Position numbers and translations under genes: made by a program
Notes under the pieces: generated by a model
What the model was told of the DNA's origin: nothing
Databases searched by the model: none
The model's input: the letters and a program-made list of their open reading frames with translations, nothing else
In this document: piece by piece, positions 3,759-32,746 of the stretch
How the letters are laid out: every line of letters starts with the position of its first letter
How positions within the stretch are numbered: position 1 is the stretch's first letter
DNA from: Phycisphaerae bacterium
Lineage (GTDB): Bacteria; Planctomycetota; Phycisphaerae; UBA1845; Fen-1342
DNA length: 64,000 nt
Direction of reading: 5' to 3'
Assembly (NCBI GenBank): GCA_050115495.1
Contig: JASFQK010000005.1
Coordinates: forward strand, 64,001 to 128,000

Positions 3759-4955
3759 ATGGACACGAAACCTGATCCGACAACAAGGCGCCCAGTAGAC
3801 GAAGTGCTGCGCGCGTATCCACCTCTTCCACGCGTTCGCCGGCTCAAACCCCGCGCCGTCGCACTCATTCTCGGCGCGCTGGCCCTGCTTTTCTGCGGGC
3901 GGATGACCGTCAAGCTCTTTGATCACCAAGTCGAATCCGACGACCAATTCAGCGGCACTCGGCTGCGTGCGACGGACGACATGCTGCAACGCGGCCCGAT
4001 CGGCCAGCTTCCGACAGACTATTCGTTCATTCCGCCGGAACCGCCGCCACCCGAGCCGGTTGTTGAGCTGCCGGCACACGAAACCGTGGAGGAACCGCCG
4101 GAGTTGAGCGCTGAGCAACGCCGCCGCCTTGAGGCCTTGCGCCAGGAAATGGAAAACGCGCTGGATTCGCCCATCTGCTTCGCCGGCACACGCATTGCAC
4201 AACCAGTCTCACAACAACCAACGATCGGAATGCCGTTTCAACGGGACGAAGCGTTTCCTGACATGGGCGATGTCGCGTCCGATCAGCGTCCGCGCAGTGA
4301 TGCGCACAACCGGGCATTCCTGCGTGAGGTCGCCAACGTTAAGACTCGTGTGGACAGTGCATTGGAGTTGCCATGTTCACCGTATGAGTTGAAAGCTGGC
4401 GCCATCATCCCGGCCGCGCTGGTCACCGCCATAAACAGCGACCTGCCCGGTGATGTAATCGGACAGGTTACTGCGAACGTGTACGACTCGGTCACCGGCC
4501 GCCATCTTCTCGTCCCGCAGGGCACACGCATGATCGGCCGCTACAACAGCGAAGTCCTCAACGGGCAGAACCGCGTGCTCATCGCCTGGCAACGACTCAT
4601 TTTCCCGAACGGTAGCTCGATCATCCTGGAGGCCATGCCCGGAACGGATGCGGCGGGAGTGTCCGGCATGGCCGACCGTGTTGATTATCATGGCGCTCAG
4701 CTTGCCGGCGCCACGCTACTCTCCACGCTCGTCGCGCTCGGCGGTAACTTCGCCGCGGACGTGAACCGCGAACAACAGGAACTCGCCATCGTTGCCAACA
4801 CGGTCGCCGAGCAGGCATCACGCGTGGCACAACGAATCATCGATCGCGAACTCGACATCAAGCCGACGATACTCATCCGCGCCGGACTACCGCTCAACGT
4901 CCTGGTGAATCGCGACCTTGAGCTTGCGCCATACGCACCGCGCGGCTGTCAGTGA
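3759..4955 (+). CDS. trbI: Conjugative transfer protein TrbI (VirB10-like)
   Basis: SPYELKAGAIIPAALVTAINSDLPG, VYDSVTG, PTILIRAG motifs. Confidence 0.95.
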   Translation: MDTKPDPTTRRPVDEVLRAYPPLPRVRRLKPRAVALILGALALLFCGRMTVKLFDHQVESDDQFSGTRLRATDDMLQRGPIGQLPTDYSFIPPEPPPPEPVVELPAHETVEEPPELSAEQRRRLEALRQEMENALDSPICFAGTRIAQPVSQQPTIGMPFQRDEAFPDMGDVASDQRPRSDAHNRAFLREVANVKTRVDSALELPCSPYELKAGAIIPAALVTAINSDLPGDVIGQVTANVYDSVTGRHLLVPQGTRMIGRYNSEVLNGQNRVLIAWQRLIFPNGSSIILEAMPGTDAAGVSGMADRVDYHGAQLAGATLLSTLVALGGNFAADVNREQQELAIVANTVAEQASRVAQRIIDRELDIKPTILIRAGLPLNVLVNRDLELAPYAPRGCQ

Positions 4956-4982
4956 CTCGCAGCCCCAATCGGAGGAAAGGAC

Positions 4983-5285
4983 ATGAAAGCAGACATCGCC
5001 TTACGTCCGTGTCATATCACGGAGACCACACGCTTCACCGTCGAGGCCGACTACGAGTTGACCGAAGCGTTGCACCGTTACCAAGCGTACTATCGCGAGG
5101 CCTACGGTCACGCTGTTACAGAAGCGGACTTGTTGCGCGCCATGGCCAGGCAGTTCATAGCCGACGACAAGGACTTCCAGGGATTCGGCCGCAAGCAGCG
5201 ACGTTCCACTCGGAGACGGTCCACCGCAGGCAAAGGCGATGGCGTCCCGGGCGACAAACTCGCCTTTGAGCAGGCGACGAAGTAG
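4983..5285 (+). CDS. DUF2274-family small protein
   Basis: Position right after trbI; LHRYQAYYREAYG...LLRAMARQFIADDKDF pattern typical of DUF2274. Confidence 0.7.
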   Translation: MKADIALRPCHITETTRFTVEADYELTEALHRYQAYYREAYGHAVTEADLLRAMARQFIADDKDFQGFGRKQRRSTRRRSTAGKGDGVPGDKLAFEQATK

Positions 5286-5294
5286 GAGTCTCTC

Positions 5295-5639
5295 ATGCAC
5301 GACACGTCGAAGAGGCAACACCTATGCCGACCCAGCGCCGAGGGTGACCGTGCTTCGACGGTTGCGGCTTCTGCATCCCCTGGCTGGCACAATCACGCGG
5401 CCAGTCTCTCCGACCTGCCTGATCCGTGCACTTCCGCCCAACTAGCCGCCGTCCTGGGCAAATCCCCAAAGACCGTCGTCGACTGGTGCCAGGAGCGCGA
5501 TTACACTCTGATCCCGTGTTTCCGGCTCGGGAATCGGTGGTACCACCGTGTGCCCGAGTTGGTTCGATGGCTCAATGGGGTCAAGAGTGGTCGCATCGAG
5601 TTTCGCCGCAAACCGCGCATCTCCCGGCCAAGGAGGTGA
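5295..5639 (+). CDS. Excisionase-like helix-turn-helix protein
   Basis: TSAQLAAVLGKSPKTVVDWC...IPCFRLGNRW winged-HTH pattern; directly upstream of the integrase. Confidence 0.75.
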   Translation: MHDTSKRQHLCRPSAEGDRASTVAASASPGWHNHAASLSDLPDPCTSAQLAAVLGKSPKTVVDWCQERDYTLIPCFRLGNRWYHRVPELVRWLNGVKSGRIEFRRKPRISRPRR

Positions 5640-5642
5640 TGC

Positions 5643-6929
5643 ATGGCGAGAAAGGAGGACCGGACAAACCGGTGGATCAAATCGGAACGCGTTGGCGAGG
5701 TCACGCTGTTTCGCACATCGCGGAGTCCGTACTGGCAGATGTACTGGACCGAATCGGTCAGCGGCCAGCATGGTCCCCGCATCAAACAGCAGCAGCGTAG
5801 CACTCGCGAGACGGATATCGGTCTCGCTCGGCAAGTGGCTAGTCGGCAGAGCGAAGCGCTCTACCGGCGAAAGCACTATCCCGAGCGTGAACGAGAGCGG
5901 AAACGGACGCCGCTACGGCCCATCGTCGAGGATTTCGTACAGTACCTTGAGACGCTCGGCCGCAGTCATGGGCATATCAGCAAGCTCAAGGGCCGGCTGC
6001 ACTGCCTGGCAGATTGGTTGGAGAGGCGACAGGTGATCAACGTGCAGGACGTTAGTGCGACACTGCTACGCGACTTTCAGTCGCATCTACGCAGCGTCCG
6101 CAATGTAGGTCCTGCCACAGTAAACCACTACATCGCGGGCATTCACAACTTCTATGGGTACGCAATCTACAAGCGGAAGCTGCTCGATGGCCCGAATCCC
6201 GCGGCCACTGGAAGGCAGGCCGAATTGGATAAGCTGCCCACGCGAAGTGTGCCACCGCCGACCATCTATCCGGACCAAGTGAACGCCGTCATCCAAGTCG
6301 CTCGCAAGCACAACGACACGCAGATCGCCAACCTGATCGCGTTCGTGTGCGAGGGCGGTTTCCGCTTCCAGGAGATGCAGTTCCTTCAGGTCGGCGACAT
6401 CAACGTAGCCGAACGGGAGATCATCCTGGAGGTGAAGCGACCGGACCCGCATCGCGTGCGGGCCGAACTACGCCGGACTTGTTTGACGGAAGATGGCCTG
6501 TGGATCCCCAAGACGCCGGCGGCTCGGCGACCGATTCACATCACGGATCGGCTCGCGCGTGTAATCGGCGCGATGGGACTTGGAGACGCGTCGGACTGGG
6601 TCTTCATGAACCAAGCCGGCAACCAGATCTCCGAGAACAAGACCCTCAGCTTGCTTAAGCGCTACGCACTCGAAGCAAAGGTGCTTGTGGACGCACACCC
6701 GAAGACGGGCAAGCCGTGGTCGCTGCTCAAGTGGCACTGGCTACGGCATTACCACCGCACACGGGCACACGTGAGCCGAATCCGTCGCGAAGTATCGAAG
6801 CTGGCAATGGGCCACGCCGCCGACCCAATCCACGACCATTACCGTGGTCTGGACCGGTACGCGTTCCATGAGGAGTATGAGAAGTTTGACAGTGGGATCG
6901 ACGATGCGCTATTCGCCCGCGAAACCTGA
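5643..6929 (+). CDS. Tyrosine recombinase / integrase
   Basis: Catalytic R (GFRFQE), K (PKT), HxxR (HWLRH), H (MGH), Y (HDHY); SAM-like region ATVNHY. Confidence 0.93.
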   Translation: MARKEDRTNRWIKSERVGEVTLFRTSRSPYWQMYWTESVSGQHGPRIKQQQRSTRETDIGLARQVASRQSEALYRRKHYPERERERKRTPLRPIVEDFVQYLETLGRSHGHISKLKGRLHCLADWLERRQVINVQDVSATLLRDFQSHLRSVRNVGPATVNHYIAGIHNFYGYAIYKRKLLDGPNPAATGRQAELDKLPTRSVPPPTIYPDQVNAVIQVARKHNDTQIANLIAFVCEGGFRFQEMQFLQVGDINVAEREIILEVKRPDPHRVRAELRRTCLTEDGLWIPKTPAARRPIHITDRLARVIGAMGLGDASDWVFMNQAGNQISENKTLSLLKRYALEAKVLVDAHPKTGKPWSLLKWHWLRHYHRTRAHVSRIRREVSKLAMGHAADPIHDHYRGLDRYAFHEEYEKFDSGIDDALFARET

Positions 6930-7046: not shown

Positions 7047-7398
7047 TGGAGGCGGGGGGAATCGAACCCCCGTCCCGGAACATTTCAGCCTGAGCCTCTA
7101 CGTGTGTAGTCGGTCATTTTGTGTCTGAGCCCGCCGCAGACCGGCCAACAGGTCATCGGCGGACCGAGCCCGGCTGTTTCTTATCGCCGCGCCGCCAGAC
7201 GGGGACGCAACGACCAGCCTGCTGTCGCGTCGGTACCCGCTAGCAGGCGTCGCGGGCCGACGGGTTGCCTTAGTTAGGCAGCCAGACGGTAGCCATCATT
7301 GGCATGTAAACAGTTTCGCCAGGTGTTTAACGAGGCCTCCTGACAACCTCGACACGCCACTCAGACCTCAACCTGCCCGGTCGAAGCCAATCGCCCCC
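7047..7398 (-). ncRNA. ssrA: tmRNA (transfer-messenger RNA); tag peptide (A)ANDGYRLAA encoded at 7303-7274
   Basis: 5' GGGGGCGATTGGCTTCGAC; 3' T-arm GGGGGTTCGATTCCCCC and acceptor CGCCTCCA with G3.U wobble; internal ORF GCC AAT GAT GGC TAC CGT CTG GCT GCC TAA; 352 nt. Confidence 0.97.
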
Positions 7399-7744: not shown

Positions 7745-10069
7745 ATGACAAACAGGATGCTCATTGCCGCAATGCTACTCACTCTGCCCGCCGTCGGCTT
7801 CGCCGGCGACGACGTGCTGACCAGAACCGACGACCTGGGGCACCAGGCCTGTGTGCGGTTGTTCAGCCCACCGATGCCGCCCTCCGGTGGTGAACTGAGC
7901 ACCGCCGTCCCCGACTGGCGCCCGCTCGGTCCCTACGGCGGCGACGTTGACGCTGTGTGCGCCTCGCCGACCGCGGCAGGTGTCGTGCTCGCCGGCATCG
8001 CCCCCGACGGCAGCAGCGGCGGCACGCTCTACCGTTCCGTTGACGGCGGCGCCAGCTGGTCCGAGGTCTCGGCCCTCTCCGGCCTCAGCGTGTACGACAT
8101 CGAGTTTGCTCCCGACGGCGCGGTTTACATCGGCACCGACGACGGCGTCTGGAAGAGCATCGACGACGGCGCTTCCTGGACCCAACTGCCCTTGGGCATC
8201 GGGCTCAACGACCAGACCATGGAAATCGCCATCGATCCCAACAACCCCAACAACGTCTGGGCCGGCGTCGCCGACGCCCTCGGCAATCAGGACGTCAACA
8301 TCACCCGCTCTACCGACGCCGGCGCCTCCTGGGTCGACGTCACGCCGCCGATGGCCTCGCCGCTGACCGGCATGGGCATCGCGTTCGATCCGAACGACTC
8401 GAACAAGGTCTACACCTGCTTCCGTGGTTCGTTCGGCGGCGGGGCCTTCTGGGTCTCGACCGACGGCGGTACCACCTGGACCGACCGCTCGCTGGGCCTG
8501 CCGAGCAACCCCCTCAACGACATCGTCCACGATGGGACGCGCGTGCTCGTCACCGGCGGGCAGCTCTTCGGCTCGCAGGACGTCGGCCTGTATGAGTCCA
8601 CCGACGACGGCGCCCACTGGACCGCCCTGCACGACGGGACCTGGCCGATCATGGCCTTCTCCGCCATCGCCCTCGATCCGAACGACTATGACACGATCTA
8701 CCTGGCCAGCCTCGGCGGCGGCCTGTACTTGTCCACCGACGGCGGCGACAACTGGACCTTCAACGCCGGTGGCACCAACGGCATGTCGCTCAACGCCGTC
8801 CGCTTCGCCCCCAGCAGTTCGACGACCATCTACGCCGGCGCCAGCTCCATCGGCGTGGTGATCAGTGTCGACGGCGGCGTCTCCTTCAACCCGTCGTCCG
8901 TCGGCATCGGCGCCCTCGAGGTGATGGCCGTCGGCACGAACCCCAACGACGTGGATGAAATCGCCATCGCCTTCCAGGCGCTCAACAGCGGCGGCGTCTA
9001 CACGTCGCTCGACGGCGGCCAGAGCTGGTCGCTCGAGCCCCTGCCCGGCACGCGCTGGAGCAACGTCGTCTTCCACCCGAACGGCACGCTCTACGCGATC
9101 TCCGACGGCCCCTCCAGCATCGCGCCCGAGGGCCTCTACCGGCGCAACGTCGACGGCACCTGGACCTGCCTCGGGCCCGATCAGGGTACCTACTACGAGT
9201 CCGACGTGCCGGCCGTCCGCTTCAGCAACAACGATCCCAACCTCTTCCTGCTGGGCGGCTCGGACTTCGGCGTCGCCGGCTATGAGGCGACCGTCTGGCG
9301 CTCGCTCGACGCCGGCGATACCTGGACCAAGGTCTACGAGGGCACGCTGTCCAGCGAGGCCGTCACCGCCATCGAAATCGTCGAGGACGGCACCGACAAG
9401 GTCATGGTCGCCTCCTTCTCGGCGATGGGCACGCCCCAGGAGGGCGGTGCGTTGCGCACGACCGACGGGGGCGATCTCTGGTACGACTCCTCCAACGGCC
9501 TCGACATCGAGTCGCAGGGCTACGACCTGGCCGGCTCGTTCTCCCAACTGAACACGTTCTACTTCGCCGACGCTGACTACGGCACCGGCAACGGCGGCGT
9601 CTATCGCACGGATGACGCCGGCGAAAACTGGTCGCTGCTCGCCTCGGTGGGCGCGGTGCAACGCATCATCTGGGATCCGCTGGATGCCAACGTCTTCTAC
9701 ATCATGCAGTCCAGCGGTGCGAAGGTCAGCCGCTCCGACGACGGCGGCCTGAGCTTCACCGCCTACGACAGCGGCCTGGGCACCGCCGGCTGGGTCCGCG
9801 ACCTGACCTACGCTACGGGCCCGGCCCCGCGCTTGCTGCTGGCCACGACCACCGGTGTCTACGCCCGCACGCTGCGCGACATCGGCGACATGAACTGCGA
9901 CGGACAGGTCAATAACTTCGACATCGCCCCCTTCGTCCAGGCTGTTACCAACCCGGCCAACTACGCCGCCCAGCACCCGGGCTGCGACATCATGCTTGCC
10001 GACGTCAACGGCGATGGTCTGGTGAACAACTTCGACATCGGTCCCTTCGTCGGGCTGCTCACCAAGTAA
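7745..10069 (+). CDS. Secreted BNR/Asp-box beta-propeller protein (VPS10/GH74-like fold) with C-terminal dockerin-like domain
   Basis: Signal peptide MTNRMLIAAMLLTLPAVGFAG; many SxDGGxxW repeats; WRPLGPYGG; C-terminal GDMNCDGQVNNFDI...ADVNGDGLVNNFDIGPF; AAGGAGG RBS. Confidence 0.88.
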   Translation: MTNRMLIAAMLLTLPAVGFAGDDVLTRTDDLGHQACVRLFSPPMPPSGGELSTAVPDWRPLGPYGGDVDAVCASPTAAGVVLAGIAPDGSSGGTLYRSVDGGASWSEVSALSGLSVYDIEFAPDGAVYIGTDDGVWKSIDDGASWTQLPLGIGLNDQTMEIAIDPNNPNNVWAGVADALGNQDVNITRSTDAGASWVDVTPPMASPLTGMGIAFDPNDSNKVYTCFRGSFGGGAFWVSTDGGTTWTDRSLGLPSNPLNDIVHDGTRVLVTGGQLFGSQDVGLYESTDDGAHWTALHDGTWPIMAFSAIALDPNDYDTIYLASLGGGLYLSTDGGDNWTFNAGGTNGMSLNAVRFAPSSSTTIYAGASSIGVVISVDGGVSFNPSSVGIGALEVMAVGTNPNDVDEIAIAFQALNSGGVYTSLDGGQSWSLEPLPGTRWSNVVFHPNGTLYAISDGPSSIAPEGLYRRNVDGTWTCLGPDQGTYYESDVPAVRFSNNDPNLFLLGGSDFGVAGYEATVWRSLDAGDTWTKVYEGTLSSEAVTAIEIVEDGTDKVMVASFSAMGTPQEGGALRTTDGGDLWYDSSNGLDIESQGYDLAGSFSQLNTFYFADADYGTGNGGVYRTDDAGENWSLLASVGAVQRIIWDPLDANVFYIMQSSGAKVSRSDDGGLSFTAYDSGLGTAGWVRDLTYATGPAPRLLLATTTGVYARTLRDIGDMNCDGQVNNFDIAPFVQAVTNPANYAAQHPGCDIMLADVNGDGLVNNFDIGPFVGLLTK

Positions 10070-10128
10070 CCCCCCGGCGGCGGCGTCCATCCTGACGCCC
10101 CCCGGTGGAACCGGACACTAATCGGCAA

Positions 10129-10161
10129 CGGCCGGCGCCCACGTGGCGTCGGCCGCTGTTG
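10129..10161 (+). terminator. Hairpin, copy 1 of an identical 33-bp element
   Basis: CGGCCGGCGCCCACGTGGCGTCGGCCGCTGTTG followed by TTTGGTT; identical to 14561-14593. Confidence 0.65.
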
Positions 10162-10208
10162 TTTGGTTCCTCACGGGCTGGTGCAGTGCCTCAGAATAAC
10201 CGCATCAT

Positions 10209-10273
10209 GGGCAGGGCGGGCGTCTCGCCCGCCGACTGGCCCCTGCCTGGCAGGCGAAACGCCTGCCCCACCC
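10209..10273. repeat. REP-like inverted pair of small palindromes
   Basis: GGGCAGGGCGGGCGTCTCGCCCGCC and GGCAGGCGAAACGCCTGCCCCACCC in opposite orientation in an intergenic gap. Confidence 0.6.
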
Positions 10274-10389
10274 GGAACAGGGTGGCTTGCTTCTGACTCA
10301 CTGCACTAGCGGGGACGAACGTGGCGGGGTGGCGGTGGACCGAACAGACCACCATCGCACGTGGTACAAAGGACCCTGGCTCGCCGAGG

Positions 10390-11763
10390 CTACACTCCTT
10401 TCGGCGAAAGCTCTTCGGGCGCAGGCACGTCGGGCAGGTCGAGGGCCATCACAACGGAGGAACCGTAGAACGGATACTCGATGCGGCAACGGTAGCCCCG
10501 GAACTTGTCGGCGGCCCACCCGAGCTTGTCGCAGCAGTAACGCAGGGCGTCCACGTACCCGTCGATCTCCGACGTCGCGAAGTGCGACATCCCCTTGCCC
10601 ATGAATTGGATCGACTCCACGAAATGAAGCTGATCCAGGTCGCGGTTAGGGTCGTTGAGGTCGGGACAACCACGGACCGCCGTGTCGTAAATGCGCAGAT
10701 CGAACTCACACTCCGGCCAGATATCCTCGTGCAGCAGCACGTCGAGCAGCAACGTTCGGGCTGGGTGCTGGAGCTCGGCCCCGATGCCGCGCGTTCGCGG
10801 ATGCTCACCAGATAGCCGGTACCGAGGGAAGACGCGGCGACCCACCTCGGCTACAACGAAGTCGACGGGCGAGTTCCAGCCAACCGTGCTTCCGCCGAGA
10901 AGGTACTGATAGACGTTGCCGGTGCTCAGGAATTCCACCTCCGGGAGCGGAGACGAGCACAGTTGCATCATGAGAACGCCGTGTAAGTCACGGATGGGCC
11001 GACCCTCGAGCGTCTCGCGCACGAACGGGTCTCGCGGCGGCACTTCGCTTGGGTTCTCAATAACGTTGTTGGCGAGGCGAACCACAGCGCCAGGGCGAAG
11101 CCGGCGGAGCCCTACGAGACCCTCCATGCCCGCGTAGTCACACCACATCGGGTCGTTCGATGGGTGCATGATCGCCGTGGAGAAGCACACGTCGGCCATC
11201 ACGCCCTTGAGGTGGCTGTTGGCTCGGAAGGCGGCCTGCTTCTGCGTGGCCTCGAAGTTCTGCCGGGCCTCAGGTAGCCACCCGCTCAGGAGGGCGTCCA
11301 GCGATTGCCGGCCACCGACGTCCTGGTCGAGCATGTCTTCGTAGCGCTGCACCGCCGCCGCCGCGTCCTCAATCGTCGAGCGCGCCACGCCGGCTTTGTC
11401 GGCCTGTGCCAACAGGCGACGGAGCATGCTCGGCCCCGGCATCAACCGCAGAGCCGCCAGCGTACTGCCACGTCGGAGAGACGACAGGAGACGGCTGGTC
11501 AGCGGCTGGCTCAGATCGAGTTCACGCTGAAAGTCAGCATGGGAACGACATCCGCGGCGTTGGGCCACTTCGTCAATCGTTCGGCGAAGTGCATCACGGA
11601 GTTCGCTTCCAATACGTCTCACGCGGTGCTCGAGCGCCTCTCGCGAGGCGCCCGCCGACGTTGCTGGGGATAGCCCAATAACAGTGCCCCTGACGGGGGG
11701 CGGAGGCACCGAACGTGGTGGTTCGGGCGGCGCGGATTCGGAGTTGGGCAGGTTAGATTGCAC
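10390..11763 (-). CDS. Uncharacterised protein with N-terminal HTH-like segment (putative regulator, paralog A)
   Basis: 457-aa ORF, collinear with 14618-15898 (WLPEAR, KQAAF, GLRRLRP, CSSP, LLHEDxWP, RGYRC..YP.YG); no signal peptide; start uncertain. Confidence 0.8.
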   Translation of the reverse strand: MQSNLPNSESAPPEPPRSVPPPPVRGTVIGLSPATSAGASREALEHRVRRIGSELRDALRRTIDEVAQRRGCRSHADFQRELDLSQPLTSRLLSSLRRGSTLAALRLMPGPSMLRRLLAQADKAGVARSTIEDAAAAVQRYEDMLDQDVGGRQSLDALLSGWLPEARQNFEATQKQAAFRANSHLKGVMADVCFSTAIMHPSNDPMWCDYAGMEGLVGLRRLRPGAVVRLANNVIENPSEVPPRDPFVRETLEGRPIRDLHGVLMMQLCSSPLPEVEFLSTGNVYQYLLGGSTVGWNSPVDFVVAEVGRRVFPRYRLSGEHPRTRGIGAELQHPARTLLLDVLLHEDIWPECEFDLRIYDTAVRGCPDLNDPNRDLDQLHFVESIQFMGKGMSHFATSEIDGYVDALRYCCDKLGWAADKFRGYRCRIEYPFYGSSVVMALDLPDVPAPEELSPKGV

Positions 11764-11808
11764 GGTGGCATCATACGCGATTCTGGTTTCGACGGCAAGT
11801 CGCCGTTC

Positions 11809-11956
11809 AAAATTCTGGAATATTCTCGGGATAGCCGCTTCTTTCGGCCCGAGATGGCTCGCTTCCCTCTAATACGCATATATACAGACGTATCGAGTCA
11901 ATCCGGGCAGCGCTGGGGCTGACAACAAAAATTCCTGGAATACGCAAGGAATAACC
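11809..11956. promoter_or_regulatory. Two copies of an operator-like site, each with 11-bp-phased GG(A/G)ATA half-sites
   Basis: AAAATTCTGGAATATTCTCGGGATAGCC (from 11809) and AAAAATTCCTGGAATACGCAAGGAATAACC (from 11927) in the divergent intergenic region. Confidence 0.5.
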
Positions 11957-12149
11957 TTGACAGGGGACCCGTTCCCCCGATATCCTGCAGAAGATGGGTG
12001 AGTAACTGGGCCCCTCGGCGATGGGGACGCCGCCGGGAAGGTGATCCAGCACCTGTCCAGAATGGAATGTGCTCATCGTGAGCGCAGATATTTGTGCTCG
12101 GTTGTTCTCGAGTACACGGCATGTCCCGTTTTCACAATGGAGGAGAATC

Positions 12150-12848
12150 ATGATCGTGCGAGGTCTCTTGGTGTGCTGCGCTGTGGCGCTGTTTGTATCC
12201 GCACCCACCATGGCGGCTCAGGAATGGCTCGACGACATGGAGGCCTATCGGGTCGGCAGCTACCTGGGTGGCCAAGGGGGTTGGGAAGGCTGGGATGGTG
12301 TTTCGTACATGGGCGCGGCGTCGGTGGTTAGTCTCAGGGCGCATAGCCCAGTGGCTTCGTTCGTCACGTGGGAGTCCATCAACGTGGTCCATCCGTTCTC
12401 CGGGTATACGGAAGGGCAATGGACCTTCAGCGCCTGGCAGTATGCGGAGTCCGACCGCATCGGTGACTCGTGGGTCAACCTGTTGAACACCTACGACGTG
12501 GGGAACCACAACTGGTCGACCAGGTTGCGGTTCGACCCCGACCTCGACGTGATTGAGTCCCAGTCCGACGGGGCGCAGCTTCCCCTCATCTTGGACGAGT
12601 GGGTCCAACTGCGTGTGGAGATCGACCTGGATGCCAACATGCAGTCGGTCTACTACGGCGATGACCTTCTCACCACGAAGAGCTGGACCGAAGGCGAGAC
12701 CGGTGGCGGCGCGCTGAACATCGGCGGAATCAGCTTCGAGGCCTGCCCCTACGCCAGCATGATCTGGTATGACGACATCAGTCTGACGCCGGAGCCAGGG
12801 ACTTGCCTGTTGCTTGTGCTGGGCGCTGTCGCGCTTCGCCGGCGCTAG
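12150..12848 (+). CDS. PEP-CTERM sorting-domain secreted protein (LamG/lectin-like beta-sandwich)
   Basis: Signal peptide; C-terminal TPEPGTCLLLVLGAVALRRR; GGAGGAG RBS before ATG 12150. Confidence 0.9.
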   Translation: MIVRGLLVCCAVALFVSAPTMAAQEWLDDMEAYRVGSYLGGQGGWEGWDGVSYMGAASVVSLRAHSPVASFVTWESINVVHPFSGYTEGQWTFSAWQYAESDRIGDSWVNLLNTYDVGNHNWSTRLRFDPDLDVIESQSDGAQLPLILDEWVQLRVEIDLDANMQSVYYGDDLLTTKSWTEGETGGGALNIGGISFEACPYASMIWYDDISLTPEPGTCLLLVLGAVALRRR

Positions 12849-13108
12849 CTGAAAATCGTGGAACCTGCCCAGTTTCTTGTGCCGGCTGCGGGAGCCTGAG
12901 TGAAGTGGCGGGCCTGTCTTCAAGATAATCTCCGGAAGGAGCGCCAAGCGAGGTTCAGGCAGTCAGTTCCAGAGAAACGAGAGTCGGACGAAACGGTGCG
13001 GGCGCGGCTGACGACGAATCGGCCGCGCCCCACCTTGGCCCGCAGCGTGTGTCCCGCGCCGGACGAAACTCCGGGGCAGCAGTAGTAGGGTATTTAGGAG
13101 GAGAGTTG

Positions 13109-14497
13109 ATGAAACGTCTGTTTGCCCTTGCAACCCTATTCTCATTGATTCTGATCAACCGCGCGTCGGCTGATAGTCCCCCCGCGTTGCCGACGCTCAT
13201 CGGCGATATCATCGTTGTCGATGACGCCTCGGTGTGGAACGTCGGCGGCATCTCGGTGGCGTACAACTCCACGGACGACGAGTTCAGGGTGTTCTGGTTT
13301 GACTCGCGCATCGAGGACCAGAACGACGTCTACAGCCAACGGCTTTCGACGCTCGGCGAGTTGCTGGGTGCCAACCTGACGATTTGCGCCGGAATACCTT
13401 CGTACAGCACCACGGCGTGTGCTTACGACCCGATCGCCAACCAGTATTTCTTCGTGTGTCGGTACCAGAACGGCGGGCCGGGCACCGAGGGATTCAACCA
13501 TGCATACGGCGGTCTGGTGTCTGCGAGGGGCGGGCTGATCAACGGGTTAACCGACGTCTGCAATGGCGGGTTGGAGCCGACGCTGGCGTACAACAGCGTG
13601 GATCAGCAGTTCTTCCTCGAGGCACGCAATTTCTACGGCGGCGGCGCGGAGGGCATTCGCGGGCAGCGCTTCGACCGCGATGGCAACGTGATCGGCGGCG
13701 GGGTCACCATCACAAACACCGACTGGCCGGCGCCGTGCGGCCAGGTGTGCTACAACAGCAATGCGAACCAGTATCTGGCAACGTGGCGCGAGCAGTCCAA
13801 CGAGAATCTCCAGGGGCGCATCATAAACGCCGACGGGACGTTCGCGACCAGCGCCTTCGTCATCAGCACCATGTTCCCGGAGTCCGTCCTGGCTGCGAGT
13901 GCCGCATTCGACCCCGTAAACGATCGCTACCTGGTGCTGTGGAGCGGATTCTACGGCGGCGGCGCCTATGGGCAATTCCTGAGTCTGACAGGTGCTCCGG
14001 TGGGCGGGCCATTCATGGTATTCGAGCCGGACGGCTACCGGCTGAAGACGTTCGTGGCGTACGACCCGGTCAATCGGGTGTATCTGGCGGCGTGGCAGGA
14101 CCTGCTGGACGTGTGGGTGCAACTGCTGTCCGACAGTGGTGAGCTGCTGGGTGATCCGATTAACCTCGGGGGGTATCCGGACGGAAGCCCGCGCGTCGCT
14201 GTCAACACCACGAGCGGCGGCTTCCTGGTCGTGTGGTGGGATCGGACGTACGTCGATAACAACAACGTGCTCGCGCAGCTCGTGGGTGTCGAACCCGAGT
14301 TCATGATCGGCGACGTCAACTGTGACGGCGTGATCAACAACTTCGACATCAATCCCTTCGTGCTGGCCCTGACTAATCCGGCCGGCTACGCAGCGCAGTA
14401 TCCGGGTTGCGATATCATGCTCGCCGACACCTCCGGCGACGGCGTGGTCAACAACTTCGACATCAGTCCCTTCGTGGGTCTGCTGACCGCCCCGTGA
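13109..14497 (+). CDS. Secreted repeat (probable beta-propeller) protein with C-terminal dockerin-like domain
   Basis: Signal peptide MKRLFALATLFSLILINRASA; about 7 repeats of AY(N/D)xxxNxYLxxW...GQ; C-terminal GDVNCDGVINNFDI...GDGVVNNFDISPF; AGGAGG RBS. Confidence 0.88.
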   Translation: MKRLFALATLFSLILINRASADSPPALPTLIGDIIVVDDASVWNVGGISVAYNSTDDEFRVFWFDSRIEDQNDVYSQRLSTLGELLGANLTICAGIPSYSTTACAYDPIANQYFFVCRYQNGGPGTEGFNHAYGGLVSARGGLINGLTDVCNGGLEPTLAYNSVDQQFFLEARNFYGGGAEGIRGQRFDRDGNVIGGGVTITNTDWPAPCGQVCYNSNANQYLATWREQSNENLQGRIINADGTFATSAFVISTMFPESVLAASAAFDPVNDRYLVLWSGFYGGGAYGQFLSLTGAPVGGPFMVFEPDGYRLKTFVAYDPVNRVYLAAWQDLLDVWVQLLSDSGELLGDPINLGGYPDGSPRVAVNTTSGGFLVVWWDRTYVDNNNVLAQLVGVEPEFMIGDVNCDGVINNFDINPFVLALTNPAGYAAQYPGCDIMLADTSGDGVVNNFDISPFVGLLTAP

Positions 14498-14560
14498 TCC
14501 TGATCGCGCACACCGCGCAGTGACAAACGACTCTCCGCTGAGAGAGAACGTTCGAATCAG

Positions 14561-14593
14561 CGGCCGGCGCCCACGTGGCGTCGGCCGCTGTTG
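14561..14593 (+). terminator. Hairpin, copy 2 of the identical 33-bp element
   Basis: Identical to 10129-10161; same position between a dockerin gene and a convergent regulator-like gene. Confidence 0.65.
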
Positions 14594-14617
14594 CCTGGTG
14601 GTATGTGGAGGCCTCGT

Positions 14618-15898
14618 CTACGGGTTGAGGTCGCTATTGGCGGACGGCCTCGCCGGTGGGTCGAAGACAACGCAGGCGGACGTTCCGTAGATCGGATACC
14701 GAATATGGCAACGATAGCCACGCAGCCGCGACGCGTCCCACGACAGCGTGTCGCACACGTGCTGGAGCATCTCCACGTAATGTCCGACGCCGGCCACGCG
14801 GAAACGAGCCACCCCCTGGCCCATGTACGTGATCGACTCGTTCACTTTCAGTCGATACAGCTCGCCCGTCTGCGAGTTCGGGTTTGCCAGATCCTGCTGT
14901 GTCGTGTCGTACATGATCAGTTCGGGCGCCGCCTCGGGCCACACGTCCTCGTGCAGGAGCATGTCGATCAGCAACGACTTGCACGGCACCGTCGGATCGC
15001 CGAAGGCGGCGATGCGCCGAGGCGGCGTCGTCTGGTACCGCGGGTGTCGGCCCTTCATCGTGCAGGCCGTCGCCACGTCCACCGCCGACCCGGGGCCCAC
15101 CCCGTTGCCCGTCAGCAGGTAATGCGCCCGCAACTCCGTACGAACCACCTTGAACTGCGGCGGCGGCGATGAGCAGAACCGCCGCAACAGCGGGTACTCG
15201 TCCGACGCCTCCGGCGCCGCCAAACCGGCCATCGTGATCGCCTGCGAACCGTTGGCAAAGGCCCCGAGCGACGTGACACAGATCTCCGCGCTGGGCCGCA
15301 GCCGGCGCAAGCCCACCGAGCCGGCGACCAGCGCTGCGTCCACGCGCTCCCCCGTATCGTCCGGGTAGCCGATGAACGCACAGAACTCCGTGTCGGCGTA
15401 GTAACCCTTGAGATTGGCCATGGCCTTGAACGCGGCCTGCTTGTTGGCCATCTCGAACTTCCGGCGGGCCTCGGGCAGCCAGTCGCTGGCCACGCTGTGC
15501 AGGGCGCCCCAGCCGCCCACCTCCTGGTCGAGCAGCCGCTCGAGATCCACGATCGCCTGGCTGGCCCGCTCGATCGCCTCCTTGCGGACGCAGGCCCGGG
15601 AGGCCTTGAGGATCGTGCGCAGCCCTTCGGCCCGCGGCATCTCGCACAACGCCGCCAGCGGGTCGCTGTACTCCACGGCCTTCAGCAATCGCCCCACCAC
15701 GACGCGGTGTGCCTTGAGCACGCGGGCGAACTCGCGCGGCTTCGTGCTCTGCGCGGGCACATCGGCCACAACCTCGCGCAGCGCATCGCGCAGCTTCGCC
15801 GCCCCGTGGCGCAGCCGCACATCCAGTGACTCTCCCCGCGAGTCATCCGAGGGCGCGTGGCCGGAATGCGAAGGGTCATCAGTCGACGTGGGATACAT
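14618..15898 (-). CDS. Uncharacterised protein with N-terminal HTH-like segment (putative regulator, paralog B)
   Basis: 426-aa ORF homologous over its full length to 10390-11763; KPREFARVLKAHRVVVGRLL HTH-like segment. Confidence 0.8.
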   Translation of the reverse strand: MYPTSTDDPSHSGHAPSDDSRGESLDVRLRHGAAKLRDALREVVADVPAQSTKPREFARVLKAHRVVVGRLLKAVEYSDPLAALCEMPRAEGLRTILKASRACVRKEAIERASQAIVDLERLLDQEVGGWGALHSVASDWLPEARRKFEMANKQAAFKAMANLKGYYADTEFCAFIGYPDDTGERVDAALVAGSVGLRRLRPSAEICVTSLGAFANGSQAITMAGLAAPEASDEYPLLRRFCSSPPPQFKVVRTELRAHYLLTGNGVGPGSAVDVATACTMKGRHPRYQTTPPRRIAAFGDPTVPCKSLLIDMLLHEDVWPEAAPELIMYDTTQQDLANPNSQTGELYRLKVNESITYMGQGVARFRVAGVGHYVEMLQHVCDTLSWDASRLRGYRCHIRYPIYGTSACVVFDPPARPSANSDLNP

Positions 15899-15999
15899 CG
15901 TCAGAAATTGTCCAGGATGGAATGGTTGATGTCAACACCTACTGAGATGACTGCGCATAAATTTAGTATTAACGATAACTTACATCATATCATGTCGGG

Positions 16000-16030
16000 T
16001 CTCAGATGTCTCTCAGATTCCTCTTGATTC
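16000..16030. promoter_or_regulatory. Phased direct repeats TCTCAGAT (11-bp period), operator-like
   Basis: TCTCAGAT at 16000 and 16011, degenerate CTCTTGATTC at 16021, in an AT-rich divergent intergenic region. Confidence 0.45.
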
Positions 16031-16230
16031 ACGACCGGCACCGTGTTAGAATCACCTTTGTGCTCTGCAGGAACGCGCACTCGTCGCGCGCCTGCCCGAC
16101 CGCCCGGAGTATTTCCGCCGCGGCGATCCGCGGCACGCCGGCCAGCCGGTCAGAAGCACCGTTGGTGGACAGTGCGACCCCAGCGTCGGTGTCCGGCAGC
16201 GTTCGTAACCCACGTCAGGAGGAACATGTC

Positions 16231-17046
16231 ATGAGGCAAGTGGTGTATAGTGCGATGGGGGCTCTCCTGATGGCCGGTCTGCTTATCTGTCCGGCCACCA
16301 TCGCAGACTCGACCTTCACCATCTCCGATCCCGCCGTCGATTTCCAGGTCATCGACGCCGACGACGGCAGCGGTGAGTACTTCTTCGACGGCATCGGCGA
16401 CTTCGGCCCCTTCTCCACCTTTGCCGATGCCGCCCTCGGCACCGTGGGTGAGGCCCGCTCCATGGCCGAGTTCGACATTTCCGGCTTCAGCATCCCGTCC
16501 GGCGAGACGATTCTCTCCGCCACGCTCGAAGTGCGCCTCACGTCCATCGGCGTCTTCGGCATGGGCATCAACGGTGAGGTGCCGGAGAGCCTGGCCGTTC
16601 ACGGCTACATCGCCAACGGCGTCGACGAGCTGTCCGACTTCGAGGCCGGTATCGGCAACCAGTTGGATTTGGAGCCATTGGTCGACCCCCAGCTCCACGA
16701 CATCGTCACCTTCGACGTGACCGACTACACGGCCGACACGGTCGCCGCCGGCCGGCCCTACCTCGGGCTCATGGTCCGGGCCGCGACGTTCGGCGGGGTC
16801 TGGGTCGGCGAAGGCCAGGGCTATCCCCAGCTCATCATCGAGACGGGGACCCAGTCCTACGACATCGGCGACATGAACTGCGACGGGATCGTCAACAACT
16901 TCGACATCAGCCCGTTCATTCAGGCGCTGACCGACCCCACGGCGTACGAACTCCAGCACCCGGATTGCGACCGCATGCTGGCTGACGTCAACGGCGACGG
17001 CACCGTCAACAACTTCGACATCGGCCCCTTCATCGGGCTGCTATAG
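16231..17046 (+). CDS. Secreted protein (DNRLRE-like beta-sandwich) with C-terminal dockerin-like domain
   Basis: Signal peptide MRQVVYSAMGALLMAGLLICPATIA; FDISG...ILSATL...FDVT...PQLII pattern; GDMNCDGIVNNFDI...ADVNGDGTVNNFDIGPF; AGGAGG RBS. Confidence 0.85.
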   Translation: MRQVVYSAMGALLMAGLLICPATIADSTFTISDPAVDFQVIDADDGSGEYFFDGIGDFGPFSTFADAALGTVGEARSMAEFDISGFSIPSGETILSATLEVRLTSIGVFGMGINGEVPESLAVHGYIANGVDELSDFEAGIGNQLDLEPLVDPQLHDIVTFDVTDYTADTVAAGRPYLGLMVRAATFGGVWVGEGQGYPQLIIETGTQSYDIGDMNCDGIVNNFDISPFIQALTDPTAYELQHPDCDRMLADVNGDGTVNNFDIGPFIGLL

Positions 17047-26942: not shown

Positions 26943-28408
26943 GCTCGCCGCTCCTTGCGCAATCGATGCGCCACGCCAACCGTGGCCCAGGTGCCGCTGA
27001 TCGCCAGGCCGACGGCGACCCAGATCGGCCCGCCCAGGAAGAGCTTGGCCGCCGCCGCCGGCAGAACGATGGGCAGCGTCGCCGCCAGGTTCCTGGCCAG
27101 GCGAACCAACCCCTCCCGCGGTTCGTTGCCGCTGATGCGCAGCAGCCACAGCATATACACGAACCACAGCGCCACGCTAACCGCGCCGAACAGCGCAATG
27201 GCCAGCAGCGGATCATCCCACAGACCGCCAACCAACAGGGCCCCGACCCGTCCCGCCAACAGGCACGCCTGGAAAATCAGGTCCCCCTGCTGCCGTTCGA
27301 GCACGTAGACCAGCGACGACAGCGGGGCCACCGTGAACACCACGAGCAGCCACGGACAGAGGAACTGGGCGTACACGCCCGCCATCATCCACTTCGGCCC
27401 GAACACGAGAGAGAAGACCTCCGGCGCGGTGATCATCAGCAGCGCCGCGTAGGGCGTACCGACGCCCGCCAGCCCGGTGAAGACGCGCAGCGTGATCCCC
27501 GCCGTCTGGCCCTGGCGGCTGGCCTCCGCGGCGTTGGAGAAGAACACCTGGCTGATCGCCTGGCCGATGAAGTTGAGCGGCGTCCACAACACCTGACTGG
27601 TCAGCACGTACAGCCCCACCGGGGCGGTGCCGAAGAACGCCGACAACAGCATGACCGGCAACTGCGCGCTGCACGTGTTCAGCAGGGCGGACCACGACGT
27701 GAACATCGGGAAGCGGCGATAACGCCGGGCTTCCTCCAGCACACGGGGCACCGAAACCTGCTTCAAACAGGCGAAATGGTCTCTCCAGAAAATACGGATC
27801 AGGGCGGCACCGCCCCCACCCCAGCGAACCACGTGCCCGAGCAGCAGCCCGAGCGGCCCGAGATACAGCAACCCCAGGCCGATCTGCGTGGTAACGGCCC
27901 CTACAGCCTGTGACAGCTTGCTTTGCGCAATCGCCGCGAAGGCCTTCTTGCGGACGCTCCAGAGCTGGAACGCCCCGTAGATACCTCCGACCAGCGTGTT
28001 GAAGGGCACGAGCCACAAGTACGGCCGCAGACGTGGAGCATCGAGCCACAACAGGACAACGTCCCCGAGCACCCACAGGACCACGGCGATCAGCGTGCTC
28101 ATGCCCACGACCAACGCCAGCACCAGCGCCAGCACGTTCGCGGCGCTGCCGTCCTCCTCCGGCGCCGGGATCGCCGACTCGTAACGCCAACTGATGACCA
28201 CCAGCCCCATCGATACCAGTGAGATGTACACGCCCAACACGCCGAAGTCGGGCGGCAGATACAGACGCGTGATGATCGGCGAGGCCGCCAGCACGAGCGC
28301 ATAGCCGACGCCGGTGCCGCCACCCACGACGGCCACGCTCCGAGCGAACGGCCCCATCGGCACGACGCGCTCGACGAGGCTCCAGAGCTTGCGCAGCCAT
28401 GCGGTCAT
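26939..28408 (-). CDS. Oligosaccharide flippase (Wzx)
   Basis: SPIITRLYLPPDFG, RYESAI, YRRFP motifs; many TM helices. Confidence 0.9.
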   Translation of the reverse strand: MTAWLRKLWSLVERVVPMGPFARSVAVVGGGTGVGYALVLAASPIITRLYLPPDFGVLGVYISLVSMGLVVISWRYESAIPAPEEDGSAANVLALVLALVVGMSTLIAVVLWVLGDVVLLWLDAPRLRPYLWLVPFNTLVGGIYGAFQLWSVRKKAFAAIAQSKLSQAVGAVTTQIGLGLLYLGPLGLLLGHVVRWGGGGAALIRIFWRDHFACLKQVSVPRVLEEARRYRRFPMFTSWSALLNTCSAQLPVMLLSAFFGTAPVGLYVLTSQVLWTPLNFIGQAISQVFFSNAAEASRQGQTAGITLRVFTGLAGVGTPYAALLMITAPEVFSLVFGPKWMMAGVYAQFLCPWLLVVFTVAPLSSLVYVLERQQGDLIFQACLLAGRVGALLVGGLWDDPLLAIALFGAVSVALWFVYMLWLLRISGNEPREGLVRLARNLAATLPIVLPAAAAKLFLGGPIWVAVGLAISGTWATVGVAHRLRKERRA

Positions 28409-28597
28409 GCCGGTTACGAACAAACCTTTGCGCAGCACGGGTCTGGCCTCGTCCCCCGCCGGTGGCCACGAGGGCCACGACGGATCCAGAAGCCTGAAGA
28501 TCCTTCGGAAGAAGAACTTACGTCAACAGAGACGCAAACACGGAGAAGTCTATCACCTTTATCGGTCGTCCACACGGCGAGCCGCCAGCGCCCCGCG

Positions 28598-29674
28598 CTA
28601 ACCCTCACCCAGCAGCCTCCGGGCACGCTTGCGGCGAGCTTCGACCTTCGCCCGGTACAGCTCGTCGTGGCCCTGGGCGAGGAACTCGTCCGCCAAGCGG
28701 ATGACCTCGCGGGCTCGGGACGGATCCCGGTCGGCGCTGTCCAGGTACAGGTCCATCCGTCCCAGCAGGAAGTAGGGCCAGTCGGGGCGGAGCGCCTCGC
28801 CGTAGCGGAAGAGCGCCTCCGCCTCGTCGTTCCGTCTGAGCCGCTGCTGGCAGACCGCCGCGCGATAGACCGCGATCGTCTCGAGGTCCACGGGTCGTAG
28901 CGCCAGCACACGCGAGTAGCAGGTCAGGGCTCGTTCGGGGTCGCCGGCTCTATCCCACTCCTGTCCGCGCCGCATCTGATCCCAGGCGAGCACCTGCACG
29001 CCTGCCAGGATGATTACGGGGGTCGCCAGCACCAGGTTCCACAAATGTCTGATTCGAATTCGGGGCCAGACCAGAACCACGGCCGTCACGCCCAGAGCTC
29101 CGGTAACACAGGCCACCAGCAACGAGCTGCCGGCGACGGCCAGGCCTATGGCCGCCAAGCCCCCGACGACGGCCGCGTACTCGACCACCGTCCGGCGCGA
29201 GTAGCGGACCAGCGCCACGGCGAGTCCCACCGCCAGTACGGGCAGAAACAGCCGGCACTCCCACAGGAACCGGCGTTCGCCGGACACCTCGCCGAGTTGG
29301 AGCCAGTCGGGCCCGCGGATTTCGCCGCTGAGCGGCCACAGGTACGGTATCCCGCCGGCGAGGAGATCCAGCACGGTGTGCGAGGCAACCGCGGCGAAGG
29401 CGATCAGCAGGACCCGCCAGCGGTACTCGCGACAGACGAAGCGCAGGATGAGCAGCGTGGCCGTACCCGTGACCAGCAGCACCGGCAGCGCCGCCGGCGC
29501 TGAGTGTGGGAAGCGAAGGCCGGCGAGGCGGGCGAGCCATTCGAGCACATCGGGGAGGTAGGCCAGCAGGAAGATCGTCCCGAGCCATGAGGAAGACAGC
29601 GCGGGCCGTTGGGGATCGCCGGCAGTCGACACCCCAAGTGCCACCCCGACCAATCCGTGACCGAAATGGGGCAC
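28598..29674 (-). CDS. Membrane-bound metal-dependent hydrolase (YdjM-like) with C-terminal TPR
   Basis: HFGH, LPD, HS, SHTVLD, PYLWP motifs; C-terminal TPR-like helices. Confidence 0.7.
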   Translation of the reverse strand: MPHFGHGLVGVALGVSTAGDPQRPALSSSWLGTIFLLAYLPDVLEWLARLAGLRFPHSAPAALPVLLVTGTATLLILRFVCREYRWRVLLIAFAAVASHTVLDLLAGGIPYLWPLSGEIRGPDWLQLGEVSGERRFLWECRLFLPVLAVGLAVALVRYSRRTVVEYAAVVGGLAAIGLAVAGSSLLVACVTGALGVTAVVLVWPRIRIRHLWNLVLATPVIILAGVQVLAWDQMRRGQEWDRAGDPERALTCYSRVLALRPVDLETIAVYRAAVCQQRLRRNDEAEALFRYGEALRPDWPYFLLGRMDLYLDSADRDPSRAREVIRLADEFLAQGHDELYRAKVEARRKRARRLLGEG

Positions 29675-32158: not shown

Positions 32159-32238
32159 GTCCAAGGTCCCGAAACGCCTGAACGTTGCAGCGTACGAGAT
32201 GAGACGGAACCACGCAACGCGCCCCGCGGCCGCACCCC

Positions 32239-32721: not shown

Positions 32722-32746
32722 CCGCCGGCGGACGCCATATCATAGC

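Follow-up and report, generated by a model that had tools for sequence, protein, structure and literature searches.

A multicopy family of putative one-component regulators encoded opposite PEP-CTERM and dockerin protein genes in a Phycisphaerae bacterium

Genes A and B and their neighbours

Among the uncharacterised secreted proteins of Planctomycetota, those with PEP-CTERM or dockerin tails form some of the largest groups. Here, we describe a protein family that is represented by two genes, A and B, in a stretch of 64,000 nucleotides (nt) from a Phycisphaerae bacterium (contig JASFQK010000005.1; this whole stretch is called the window and all coordinates refer to it). Its members are probably transcription factors that act on neighbouring genes for surface proteins. 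The six open reading frames (ORFs) of the locus lie in the order that a first-pass annotation of the window had described; the predicted regulator is of helix-turn-helix (HTH) type and sizes are in amino acids (aa):

7688/7745-10069, plus strand: secreted Sortilin/BNR-type beta-propeller protein with a signal-like N-terminus and a type I dockerin-like tail (Pfam Sortilin-Vps10, E 6.5e-32; BNR; Dockerin_1, E 1.7e-4)
10390-11763, minus strand: paralog A (longest ORF: 457 aa), predicted HTH-type regulator
12069/12150-12848, plus strand: divergent partner of A, a secreted protein of 232 aa with a signal-like N-terminus and a PEP-CTERM sorting tail, TPEPGTCLLLVLGAVALRRR (PF07589, E 0.027, below the cut-off)
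13049/13109-14497, plus strand: secreted protein of 462 aa without a Pfam family, its dockerin-like tail recognized by tail comparison; its gene follows that for the PEP-CTERM protein and is convergent with B
14618-15898, minus strand: paralog B, 426 aa, same family as A (ORF call and alignment)
16006/16231-17046, plus strand: divergent partner of B, a secreted protein of about 270 aa with a signal-like N-terminus, a weak DNRLRE domain and a type I dockerin tail (Dockerin_1, E 2.6e-6)

A and B are paralogs that align end to end, with 38% identity across 416 residues (BLASTP, E 4e-78), and the motifs quoted for them in the earlier annotation are indeed present in the alignments. A hydrophobic stretch is seen in neither protein (19-residue Kyte-Doolittle means peak at 0.85 in A and 1.08 in B), in line with the claim that both lack signal peptides and transmembrane helices. 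Neither has a match to a Pfam or NCBIfam family, the C-terminal domain included; histidine kinase and receiver domains are likewise absent, and both appear to be single cytoplasmic proteins. All four neighbour proteins, on the other hand, start with signal-peptide-like N-termini. The three dockerin proteins of the window have a tail of about 60 residues in common (68-70% identity) and no other similarity. Because it is convergent with A, the propeller gene at 7745-10069 is the downstream neighbour of A and not its divergent partner. The real start of A may lie some 30-40 codons inside the longest ORF, since homologs begin about there. The public gene call for A (P0001, 345 aa) starts even further in, near residue 113, and the HTH-like part is therefore cut off entirely. 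Automatic annotation may hide the DNA-binding-like domain in some members of the family.

Pairing with secreted-protein genes and candidate operators

Searched with A, the genome (5.97 Mb) contains 55 places with family members, nearly all of full length and at 22-44% identity, and phmmer on the ORF set recovers 55 ORFs at E<1e-5. Genes were called with a crude GC3-based method (4,243 genes). The neighbour survey covers 54 copies (C37_68848 was uncalled and left out), and 53 of these have an upstream neighbour. This neighbour is divergent in 46 of 53 cases, compared to 1508 of 4163 (36%) genome-wide. PEP-CTERM or dockerin motifs, detected by regular expression (regex), are found in 39 of the 53 upstream neighbours, compared to 338 of the 4,243 genes (8%; hypergeometric P 1.5e-32), and 46 of 54 copies have a motif-bearing gene on at least one flank. 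At E<=0.001, Pfam, whose short-motif models are less sensitive than the regex used, recognizes PEP-CTERM in 11 of the 53 neighbours and Dockerin_1 in 5. The passenger domains of these proteins are varied: FGE-sulfatase-like (5), DUF3466 (3), DUF4394, FG-GAP and GEVED (2 each), besides propellers, one beta-helix and one subtilase. A few neighbours in this genome, namely RtcB, a thioredoxin-like protein and an AAA protein, are not secreted cargo.

A similar arrangement is found in other genomes. Among 47 loci, collected with a 13-sequence alignment, the upstream neighbour is divergent in 40. At least 18 of these neighbours carry a sorting or dockerin tail (dockerin_GC in 12, PEP-CTERM in 2 and type I dockerin by regex in 4 more), and 3 further ones are dockerin-like by eye. 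The remaining neighbours include ispD (4), a TPR/phosphatase protein (2), cysK, pckA and lipoate ligase. Some pairs recur: the regulators of loci L071-L074 all lie opposite dockerin_GC proteins of about 1000 aa, and those of L041 and L043 lie opposite the same dockerin protein. Hence, the divergent pairing with secreted cargo that had been proposed from the two window copies is borne out by neighbourhoods that are far from random. The proposed tie to surface display holds for the majority of copies here, but it is not obligatory, given the housekeeping neighbours and the dockerin-rich relatives with few copies described below.

Three kinds of neighbourhood deserve separate mention. Five divergent partners on contigs C29, C53 and C58 (L097, L098, L111, L120) are FGE-sulfatase-like proteins, with the fold of the formylglycine-generating enzyme; all five have a PEP-CTERM tail by regex and two by Pfam (E<=0.001), and a surface-sorted, secreted form of such a protein is odd. 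An orthologous group from four Phycisphaerae metagenome-assembled genomes (MAGs; L055, L057, L058 and L061) with the helix DKVLASR has ispD instead of a secreted-protein gene as its conserved divergent neighbour, and an AGTTTCCCGGAAACT site is kept in three of the four loci. The 35-kb contig C53 is a hotspot of such modules, with six copies (92-1357, 4366-5694, 8779-10659, 27719-29053, 31452-32858 and 33159-34520) interspersed with dockerin and PEP-CTERM genes.

The intergenic regions upstream of A and B contain promoter-like sites and repeats that may serve as operators. A consensus scan of the window returned 6 promoter-like sites, compared to 1.2 +/- 1.1 in shuffles, and four of them fit the divergent layout. 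These and the candidate operators, for which no strand is assigned, are:

11770-11798, minus strand: promoter-like site of A, TTGCCG-17-TATGAT, with its end 6 nt from the GTG that opens the longest ORF
11812-11821: candidate operator 1 of A, the inverted repeat ATTCTGGAAT (ATTC/GAAT) within the box AAAATTCTGGAATATTC, reading ATTCCAGAAT at -58 on the strand of A and located just upstream of its promoter-like site
11931-11941: candidate operator 2 of A, ATTCCTGGAAT, with perfect 5-bp arms
11948-11952: a third GGAAT half-site at A, 4 nt before the -35 box of the cargo gene
11957-11986, plus strand: promoter-like site of the PEP-CTERM cargo gene, TTGACA-18-TATCCT (10/12, consensus scan)
15907-15935, minus strand: promoter-like site of B, TTGACA-17-GACAAT (10/12), ending 8 nt before the ATG
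16000-16018: candidate operator of B, the direct repeat TCTCAGAT-GTC-TCTCAGAT, whose end is 5 nt away from the -35 box of the cargo gene
16024-16052, plus strand: promoter-like site of the divergent cargo gene of B, TTGATT-17-TAGAAT, TG-extended (consensus scan)

The repeat core at B resembles the palindromes ATGCTCTCAGAGCAT and ATGCTCTGAGCGCAT of its two sister paralogs; as a direct repeat and not a palindrome, it is the weakest of the operator assignments.

Palindromes are enriched in the family's upstream regions, which are AT-rich (53% G+C, compared to 65% in other divergent upstream regions). Within -150 to +30, perfect palindromes with 7-bp arms occur at 17 of 54 copies, compared to 20 of 153 GC-matched divergent controls (Fisher P 0.004) and 146 of all 818 controls; across 20 Markov shuffles the mean was 3.85 of 54 and the maximum 8. 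They mostly lie at -10 to -115, nearer to the start of the family gene itself. The half-site types follow the clades of the proteins: examples from the LxW clade, named after the L-x-W of its predicted recognition helix, are TTGTTTCtaGAAACAT, ACGTTTCcgGAAACGT and TGGTTTCtgGAAACTA, while the clade of A and B has GATTCTCactGAGAATC, GAATATCgggGATATTC and GATGCTCtcaGAGCATC. The pattern TTTC-N0-6-GAAA, picked after inspection of the data, is found upstream of 10 of 33 copies in the LxW clade and 2 of the 21 outside it; in the control regions it occurs in 8 of 818 overall and in 2 of the 153 that are GC-matched. Of 22 GTTT[CT]-N2-4-[AG]AAAC sites genome-wide, 7 fall within the 0.42% of the genome that lies just upstream of family genes. 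In contrast, k-mer enrichment over the 54 upstream regions gave no motif common to all copies beyond RBS-like (ribosome-binding site) AGGAGG and GTCAAG-type words.

Palindrome types also go together with the predicted recognition helix. Ten loci from other genomes, which are independent of the discovery of the pattern, contain the consensus AAGTTTC-N3-GAAACTT and two more contain variants of it; the proteins of all twelve have the helix (I/V)DKVL(A/T)SR. Across the 101 members that were tabulated, three classes of helix compare as follows:

Helix D[KR]VL[AT]SR (n=21): AGTTTC-N3-GAAACT with at most 2 changes at 17/21, compared to 1/80 in other classes
Helix LxW (n=29): GTTT[CT]-N2-[AG]AAAC with at most 1 change at 9/29, compared to 2/72 in other classes
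Helix HRLxT (n=3): ATTCTC-N3-GAGAAT with at most 2 changes at 3/3, compared to 6/98 in other classes

The LSQ helix class, to which A belongs, goes with ATTC(C/T)-N-(G/A)GAAT, found twice before A and once each at L028 and at L069, the copy of Ideonella azotifigens. The palindrome type of operator 2 of A (ATTCTCAGAAT) stands upstream of L069 and L028 and recurs with one change in L035 and L036; before the family member C4_156078 the palindrome of this class was not found. A footprint at one LxW copy is in line with a conserved site: in three sequences, GTCAAT and the TTTC..GAAA palindrome are kept at 85% and 57% protein identity, while the remaining spacer has diverged.

The position of the palindromes relative to the promoters is asymmetric. 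The word GTCAA reads TTGAC, and is thus -35-like, on the strand of the neighbour. Among 40 divergent loci with a palindrome, 18 have this word no more than 30 nt from the palindrome towards the neighbour, and 0 have it on the opposite side; the corresponding counts are 14 and 8 of 386 for controls and 8 and 7 of 118 for GC-matched controls. In several loci of the DKVLASR class GTCAAG directly abuts the palindrome. An operator that abuts the -35 box from upstream is in the usual position for an activator. At L035 and L036 the site adjoins the -35 box of the family gene itself.

Predicted structure, distribution and known systems

The AlphaFold2 model of A, built from a 48-sequence alignment, has a mean pLDDT of 89.7 and a pTM of 0.84. 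Its N-terminal domain (residues 35-186) is helical: the long helix 35-70 is followed by helix 75-82, a three-residue turn, helix 86-97 and a further five helices. The pair 75-82 and 86-97 is HTH-like, so that an HTH-like element, as had been read from the sequence, is also present in the predicted structure. According to DSSP, the helices 101-107 and 111-123 follow the predicted recognition helix and no strand precedes residue 188. The C-terminal domain (residues 188-442) is mostly beta and contains polar residues that are nearly invariant in aligned members (D341, H345, Y359, D360, R374, E383, R422, Y424, R425 and Y430). A wide VIA-align search over 48,161 chains gave the following fold matches for it, with their scores:

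Ribophorin I/OST1 (6s7o_E, 6c26_1): 10.4 and 10.3
N-domain of the putative protease BDI_1141 (3kd4_B): 10.1
ITIH1 (6fpy_A): 8.4
lpg2210 (4g2a_A): 8.1
N-domains of many M1 aminopeptidases: 6-8

PDB profile searches with the whole family, the N-domain and the C-domain returned nothing under E 0.01. An Atlas feature search returned unnamed Planctomycetota clusters only, and the corresponding search of named clusters with the C-domain gave no usable feature match; structural leads for this domain in the Atlas have a TM-score of 0.54-0.66 and are leads only.

Several known families were considered and set aside. XRE/Cro-C1 type HTH regulators (HTH_3, HTH_31) gave no family-profile match. Winged-helix regulators (MarR, IclR, ArsR) gave sub-threshold profile matches only, comprising 13 member-family pairs among 48 members (best E 0.011; HVO_A0261_N 5, HTH_IclR 2, MarR_2 2 and four further families 1 each), and in the model helices, not a beta-hairpin wing, follow the recognition helix. 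With M1 aminopeptidases only the fold of the N-domain is matched; Pfam does not recognize Peptidase_M1, and the C-domain profile gave no significant sequence match in the PDB. Nor did Pfam, NCBIfam, PDB profile or fold searches return any enzyme family, a match that would have spoken against a regulator. A defence system and a phage gene were dismissed, since PADLOC gave no match and PHROG none below E 0.09.

The family is found mostly in Phycisphaerae. Word-index matches of A are "hypothetical proteins" in 88 of 88 cases, mostly from Phycisphaerae, and a 48-member profile matches 2,989 clusters (50% identity) at E<=0.001 and 1,682 at E<=1e-30. Among the 150 matches listed, lengths range from 242 to 454 aa, nearly all being 380-445. 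Of 301 Planctomycetota genomes sampled, 20 contain the family. It is also found in Ideonella azotifigens JCM 15503, in two other Burkholderiales MAGs, a Thiocapsa MAG and a Fermentibacteria MAG, and the earlier view of a lineage-specific family does not hold. The Ideonella copy is L069 (NZ_BAAAEW010000016.1), and L035 and L036 are also from Burkholderiales; in the latter two, the family gene is divergent from a secreted protein of about 340 aa without a sorting tail. The palindrome type seen before A, ATTCTCAG(A/C)AT, is found upstream in these Burkholderiales loci. The Burkholderiales occurrence suggests transfer between phyla.

Copy number differs strongly between relatives. With A as query (E<=1e-20), there are 51 matches here, 2-5 in six genomes of the same genus and 0-6 in nine other genomes of the same family; the present genome is 1-2 Mb larger than its relatives. 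Dockerin_1 matches, for which the best 150 candidates were scored, range from at least 4 to 87 across 25 relatives, with at least 71 here. The expansion is therefore peculiar to this organism and does not track dockerin abundance. With identities of just 22-44% the copies are old. In a phylogenetic tree, A-like copies are intermingled with sequences from other genomes (16 singleton clades and two pairs) and have nearer relatives outside than inside their own genome; the outside sequences were picked with an A-like profile, and the tree is silent on whether the 34-member LxW clade is private to the genome. One LxW copy has outside homologs at 85, 84, 79, 73 and 69% identity. Either the relatives lost copies or this lineage gained many cassettes.

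Two further features of the window lie beside the A and B loci. A G+C-rich hairpin is found at both:

10126-10167, plus strand: hairpin copy 1, terminator-like, between convergent genes (stem 10129-10155, 11 pairs), followed by the T-rich tail CTGTTGTTTG
14558-14599, plus strand: hairpin copy 2, 93% identical to copy 1 over 42 nt

The repeated hairpin noted in the first-pass annotation is thus real; as part of a general module it fails, because, with up to 3 mismatches allowed, the 5.97-Mb genome contains only these two sites (a reversed-pattern control gave 0), and it is rather a local feature of the A and B loci. Further upstream, an HTH_17 excisionase-like gene (5295-5639), a tyrosine integrase gene (5643-6929) and a transfer-messenger RNA (tmRNA) gene (7047-7398, minus strand, tag ANDGYRLAA) follow one another, and G+C content is 61% in the first 8 kb of the window compared to 66-70% beyond. 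This has the appearance of an island that was inserted at the 3' end of ssrA, and it lies on the far side from A and B.

One-component regulators are the closest known analogy. Many regulators of the LysR, AraC and IclR types combine a DNA-binding with a sensor domain and are encoded divergently from their targets. Like these, A and B are single cytoplasmic proteins without kinase or receiver, in which a small helical DNA-binding-like domain is joined to a larger second domain; the presumed target gene is divergent and a palindromic site lies between both promoters, suggesting autoregulation. They differ in that no named regulator family is matched in sequence, and in that a single genome has about 55 copies, the majority of which appear to serve one private target each. 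We know of no characterised regulator with a beta fold like that of the ribophorin I or M1 aminopeptidase N-domain as sensor. The fold relatives differ in turn: compared to the N-domains of M1 aminopeptidases, ribophorin I/OST1 and DUF3857-type proteins (3kd4), the C-domain of A has 6-10% identity and no catalytic partner domain. Most M1, ribophorin and DUF3857-type proteins are extracytoplasmic, whereas A and B are cytoplasmic with the beta domain fused to a DNA-binding-like domain.

For PEP-CTERM/exosortase loci, the regulators described are the two-component proteins PrsK and PrsR (TIGR02915/TIGR02916), of which PrsR, a sigma-54 enhancer-binding response regulator, serves many genes. A and B resemble this system in the proposed control of PEP-CTERM protein genes. 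They differ in that neither has an NCBIfam or Pfam match to PrsR or PrsK, and each apparently acts on one gene with sigma-70-like promoters. A cryptic DNA-binding domain is also known from ChiS of Vibrio cholerae (PDB 7kpo), in which a beta-sheet insertion replaces the turn to give a helix-sheet-helix arrangement; the domain is described as exclusively C-terminal and from Proteobacteria (Klancher et al., 2021; PMC8092284). The model of A has a three-residue turn in an N-terminal domain, and PDB profile searches gave no sequence similarity to the ChiS domain. Because of this tight turn and the N-terminal position, we did not file the family under ChiS. With respect to the cargo, dockerin-tailed secreted proteins of the same bacterial class are also the subject of the "Planctosome", a cohesin-dockerin surface complex proposed for freshwater Phycisphaerae (Andrei et al., 2019). 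That proposal, however, concerns complex assembly; no regulator is mentioned in the passages that a term search picked out (PMC6461901), and the text has 0 occurrences of "transcriptional regulator". A full-text literature search, limited in coverage, returned nothing on the A/B family and no account of one-by-one control of PEP-CTERM or dockerin genes.

Interpretation and significance

Taken together, we consider it likely, with a probability of roughly 0.7, that the A/B family comprises one-component transcription factors that bind a palindromic operator and control the divergent neighbour as well as themselves. That they are DNA-binding switches is indicated above all by the fact that each predicted recognition-helix class has its own palindrome upstream. 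Each copy, probably as a dimer, would bind the operator between its own promoter and that of the divergent neighbour, and the bound protein would control the neighbour, usually a PEP-CTERM or dockerin protein gene, together with its own gene. Autoregulation is suggested by the spacer that both promoters have in common. As the site borders the -35 box on its upstream side, our guess for the sign of control is activation. What we infer from sequence and model is that the proteins bind DNA, form dimers and control the neighbour, and in which direction they do so. Many polar residues of the C-domain are nearly invariant, which suggests that the copies respond to a common type of input and that it is mainly their DNA specificity that varies. 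Thus, the core of the earlier proposal, one-component regulators of divergent cargo, gains support from the computation, while lineage specificity, the general hairpin and the obligatory link to display are lost.

Several observations weigh against this interpretation. The helix classes and operator patterns were defined post hoc, after inspection of the data, and the members of a class are kin, so that the helix-operator counts overstate independence. A generic covariation test, comparing HTH identity with the best common upstream 14-mer, gave a Spearman coefficient of 0.01 over 1431 pairs, and only the 12 closest pairs stood out. Perfect palindromes are present at just 17 of the 54 copies; the site of A is short (5-bp arms) and that of B a direct repeat. 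No Pfam HTH family is significant for family members, and the fold match of the N-domain is within the range that helical bundles attain by chance. Finally, only 54 of the 338 motif-bearing genes of the genome adjoin a family copy, and dockerin-rich relatives carry merely 0-6 copies, meaning that most such cargo genes are controlled otherwise.

Of the alternatives, the one that survives best, although we regard it as unlikely, keeps DNA binding but lets the proteins regulate only themselves or distant genes, the neighbourhood resulting from joint travel in variable genome regions. It would account for palindromes that lie nearer to the family gene's own start, mostly at -10 to -115, for the site abutting the family gene's own -35 box in L035 and L036, and for copies beside ispD, cysK, pckA, RtcB or a thioredoxin-like gene. 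The 51 matches here, compared to 2-5 in genomes of the same genus, also suggest gain of whole cassettes. However, where GTCAA accompanies the palindrome (18 of 40 loci) it is always on the side facing the neighbour, divergent orientation prevails at 46 of 53 copies, and regulator-cargo pairs persist across genomes (L071-L074; L041 and L043). Less probable still, and in our judgement a poor explanation, is a cytoplasmic helper of the secreted neighbour, such as a chaperone, targeting factor or modifying enzyme, in which the beta C-domain would hold a peptide. The C-domain fold is compatible with such a role, but helix-class-specific palindromes and their conservation in diverged orthologous loci are left unexplained, no catalytic domain or motif of such enzymes was matched, and comparable beta domains in the Atlas are fused to GerE and HTH_3/HTH_31 DNA-binding domains (TM-scores of 0.54-0.59, leads only). 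A selfish or mobile element that inserts beside surface-protein genes, as the very high copy number and the integrase and tmRNA genes just upstream in the window might suggest, is very improbable, given the age of the copies, the nearer relatives of A-like copies in other genomes, the position of the integrase on the far side of the tmRNA gene, and the failure to find common terminal repeats or any transposase, nuclease, PHROG or PADLOC match.

A more far-reaching version of the transcription-factor interpretation is speculative, and we think it doubtful as a whole. In it, the cryptic HTH and the ribophorin-I-like beta sensor would make up a new class of transcription factor, deployed in dozens of copies as self-regulating switches, each private to a single surface-protein gene, with the sensor pocket kept and the operators differing. 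Positive feedback would then turn a single cue into independent on/off choices and single-cell mosaics of PEP-CTERM and dockerin proteins.

A regulator that is divergent from its target is an ordinary arrangement. What is new is the unnamed family, the DNA-binding-like domain that escapes profiles and the unfamiliar sensor fold, and about 55 mostly one-to-one copies in a single genome are unusual. With operators predicted for four helix classes the family is directly testable, and the homolog in the cultured strain Ideonella azotifigens JCM 15503 means that genetics would be possible. If the transcription-factor interpretation is true, it adds a variant of DNA-binding domain that is missed by profile libraries, together with an unfamiliar sensor fold. 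It would also provide a handle for switching on single surface proteins and for learning their roles.

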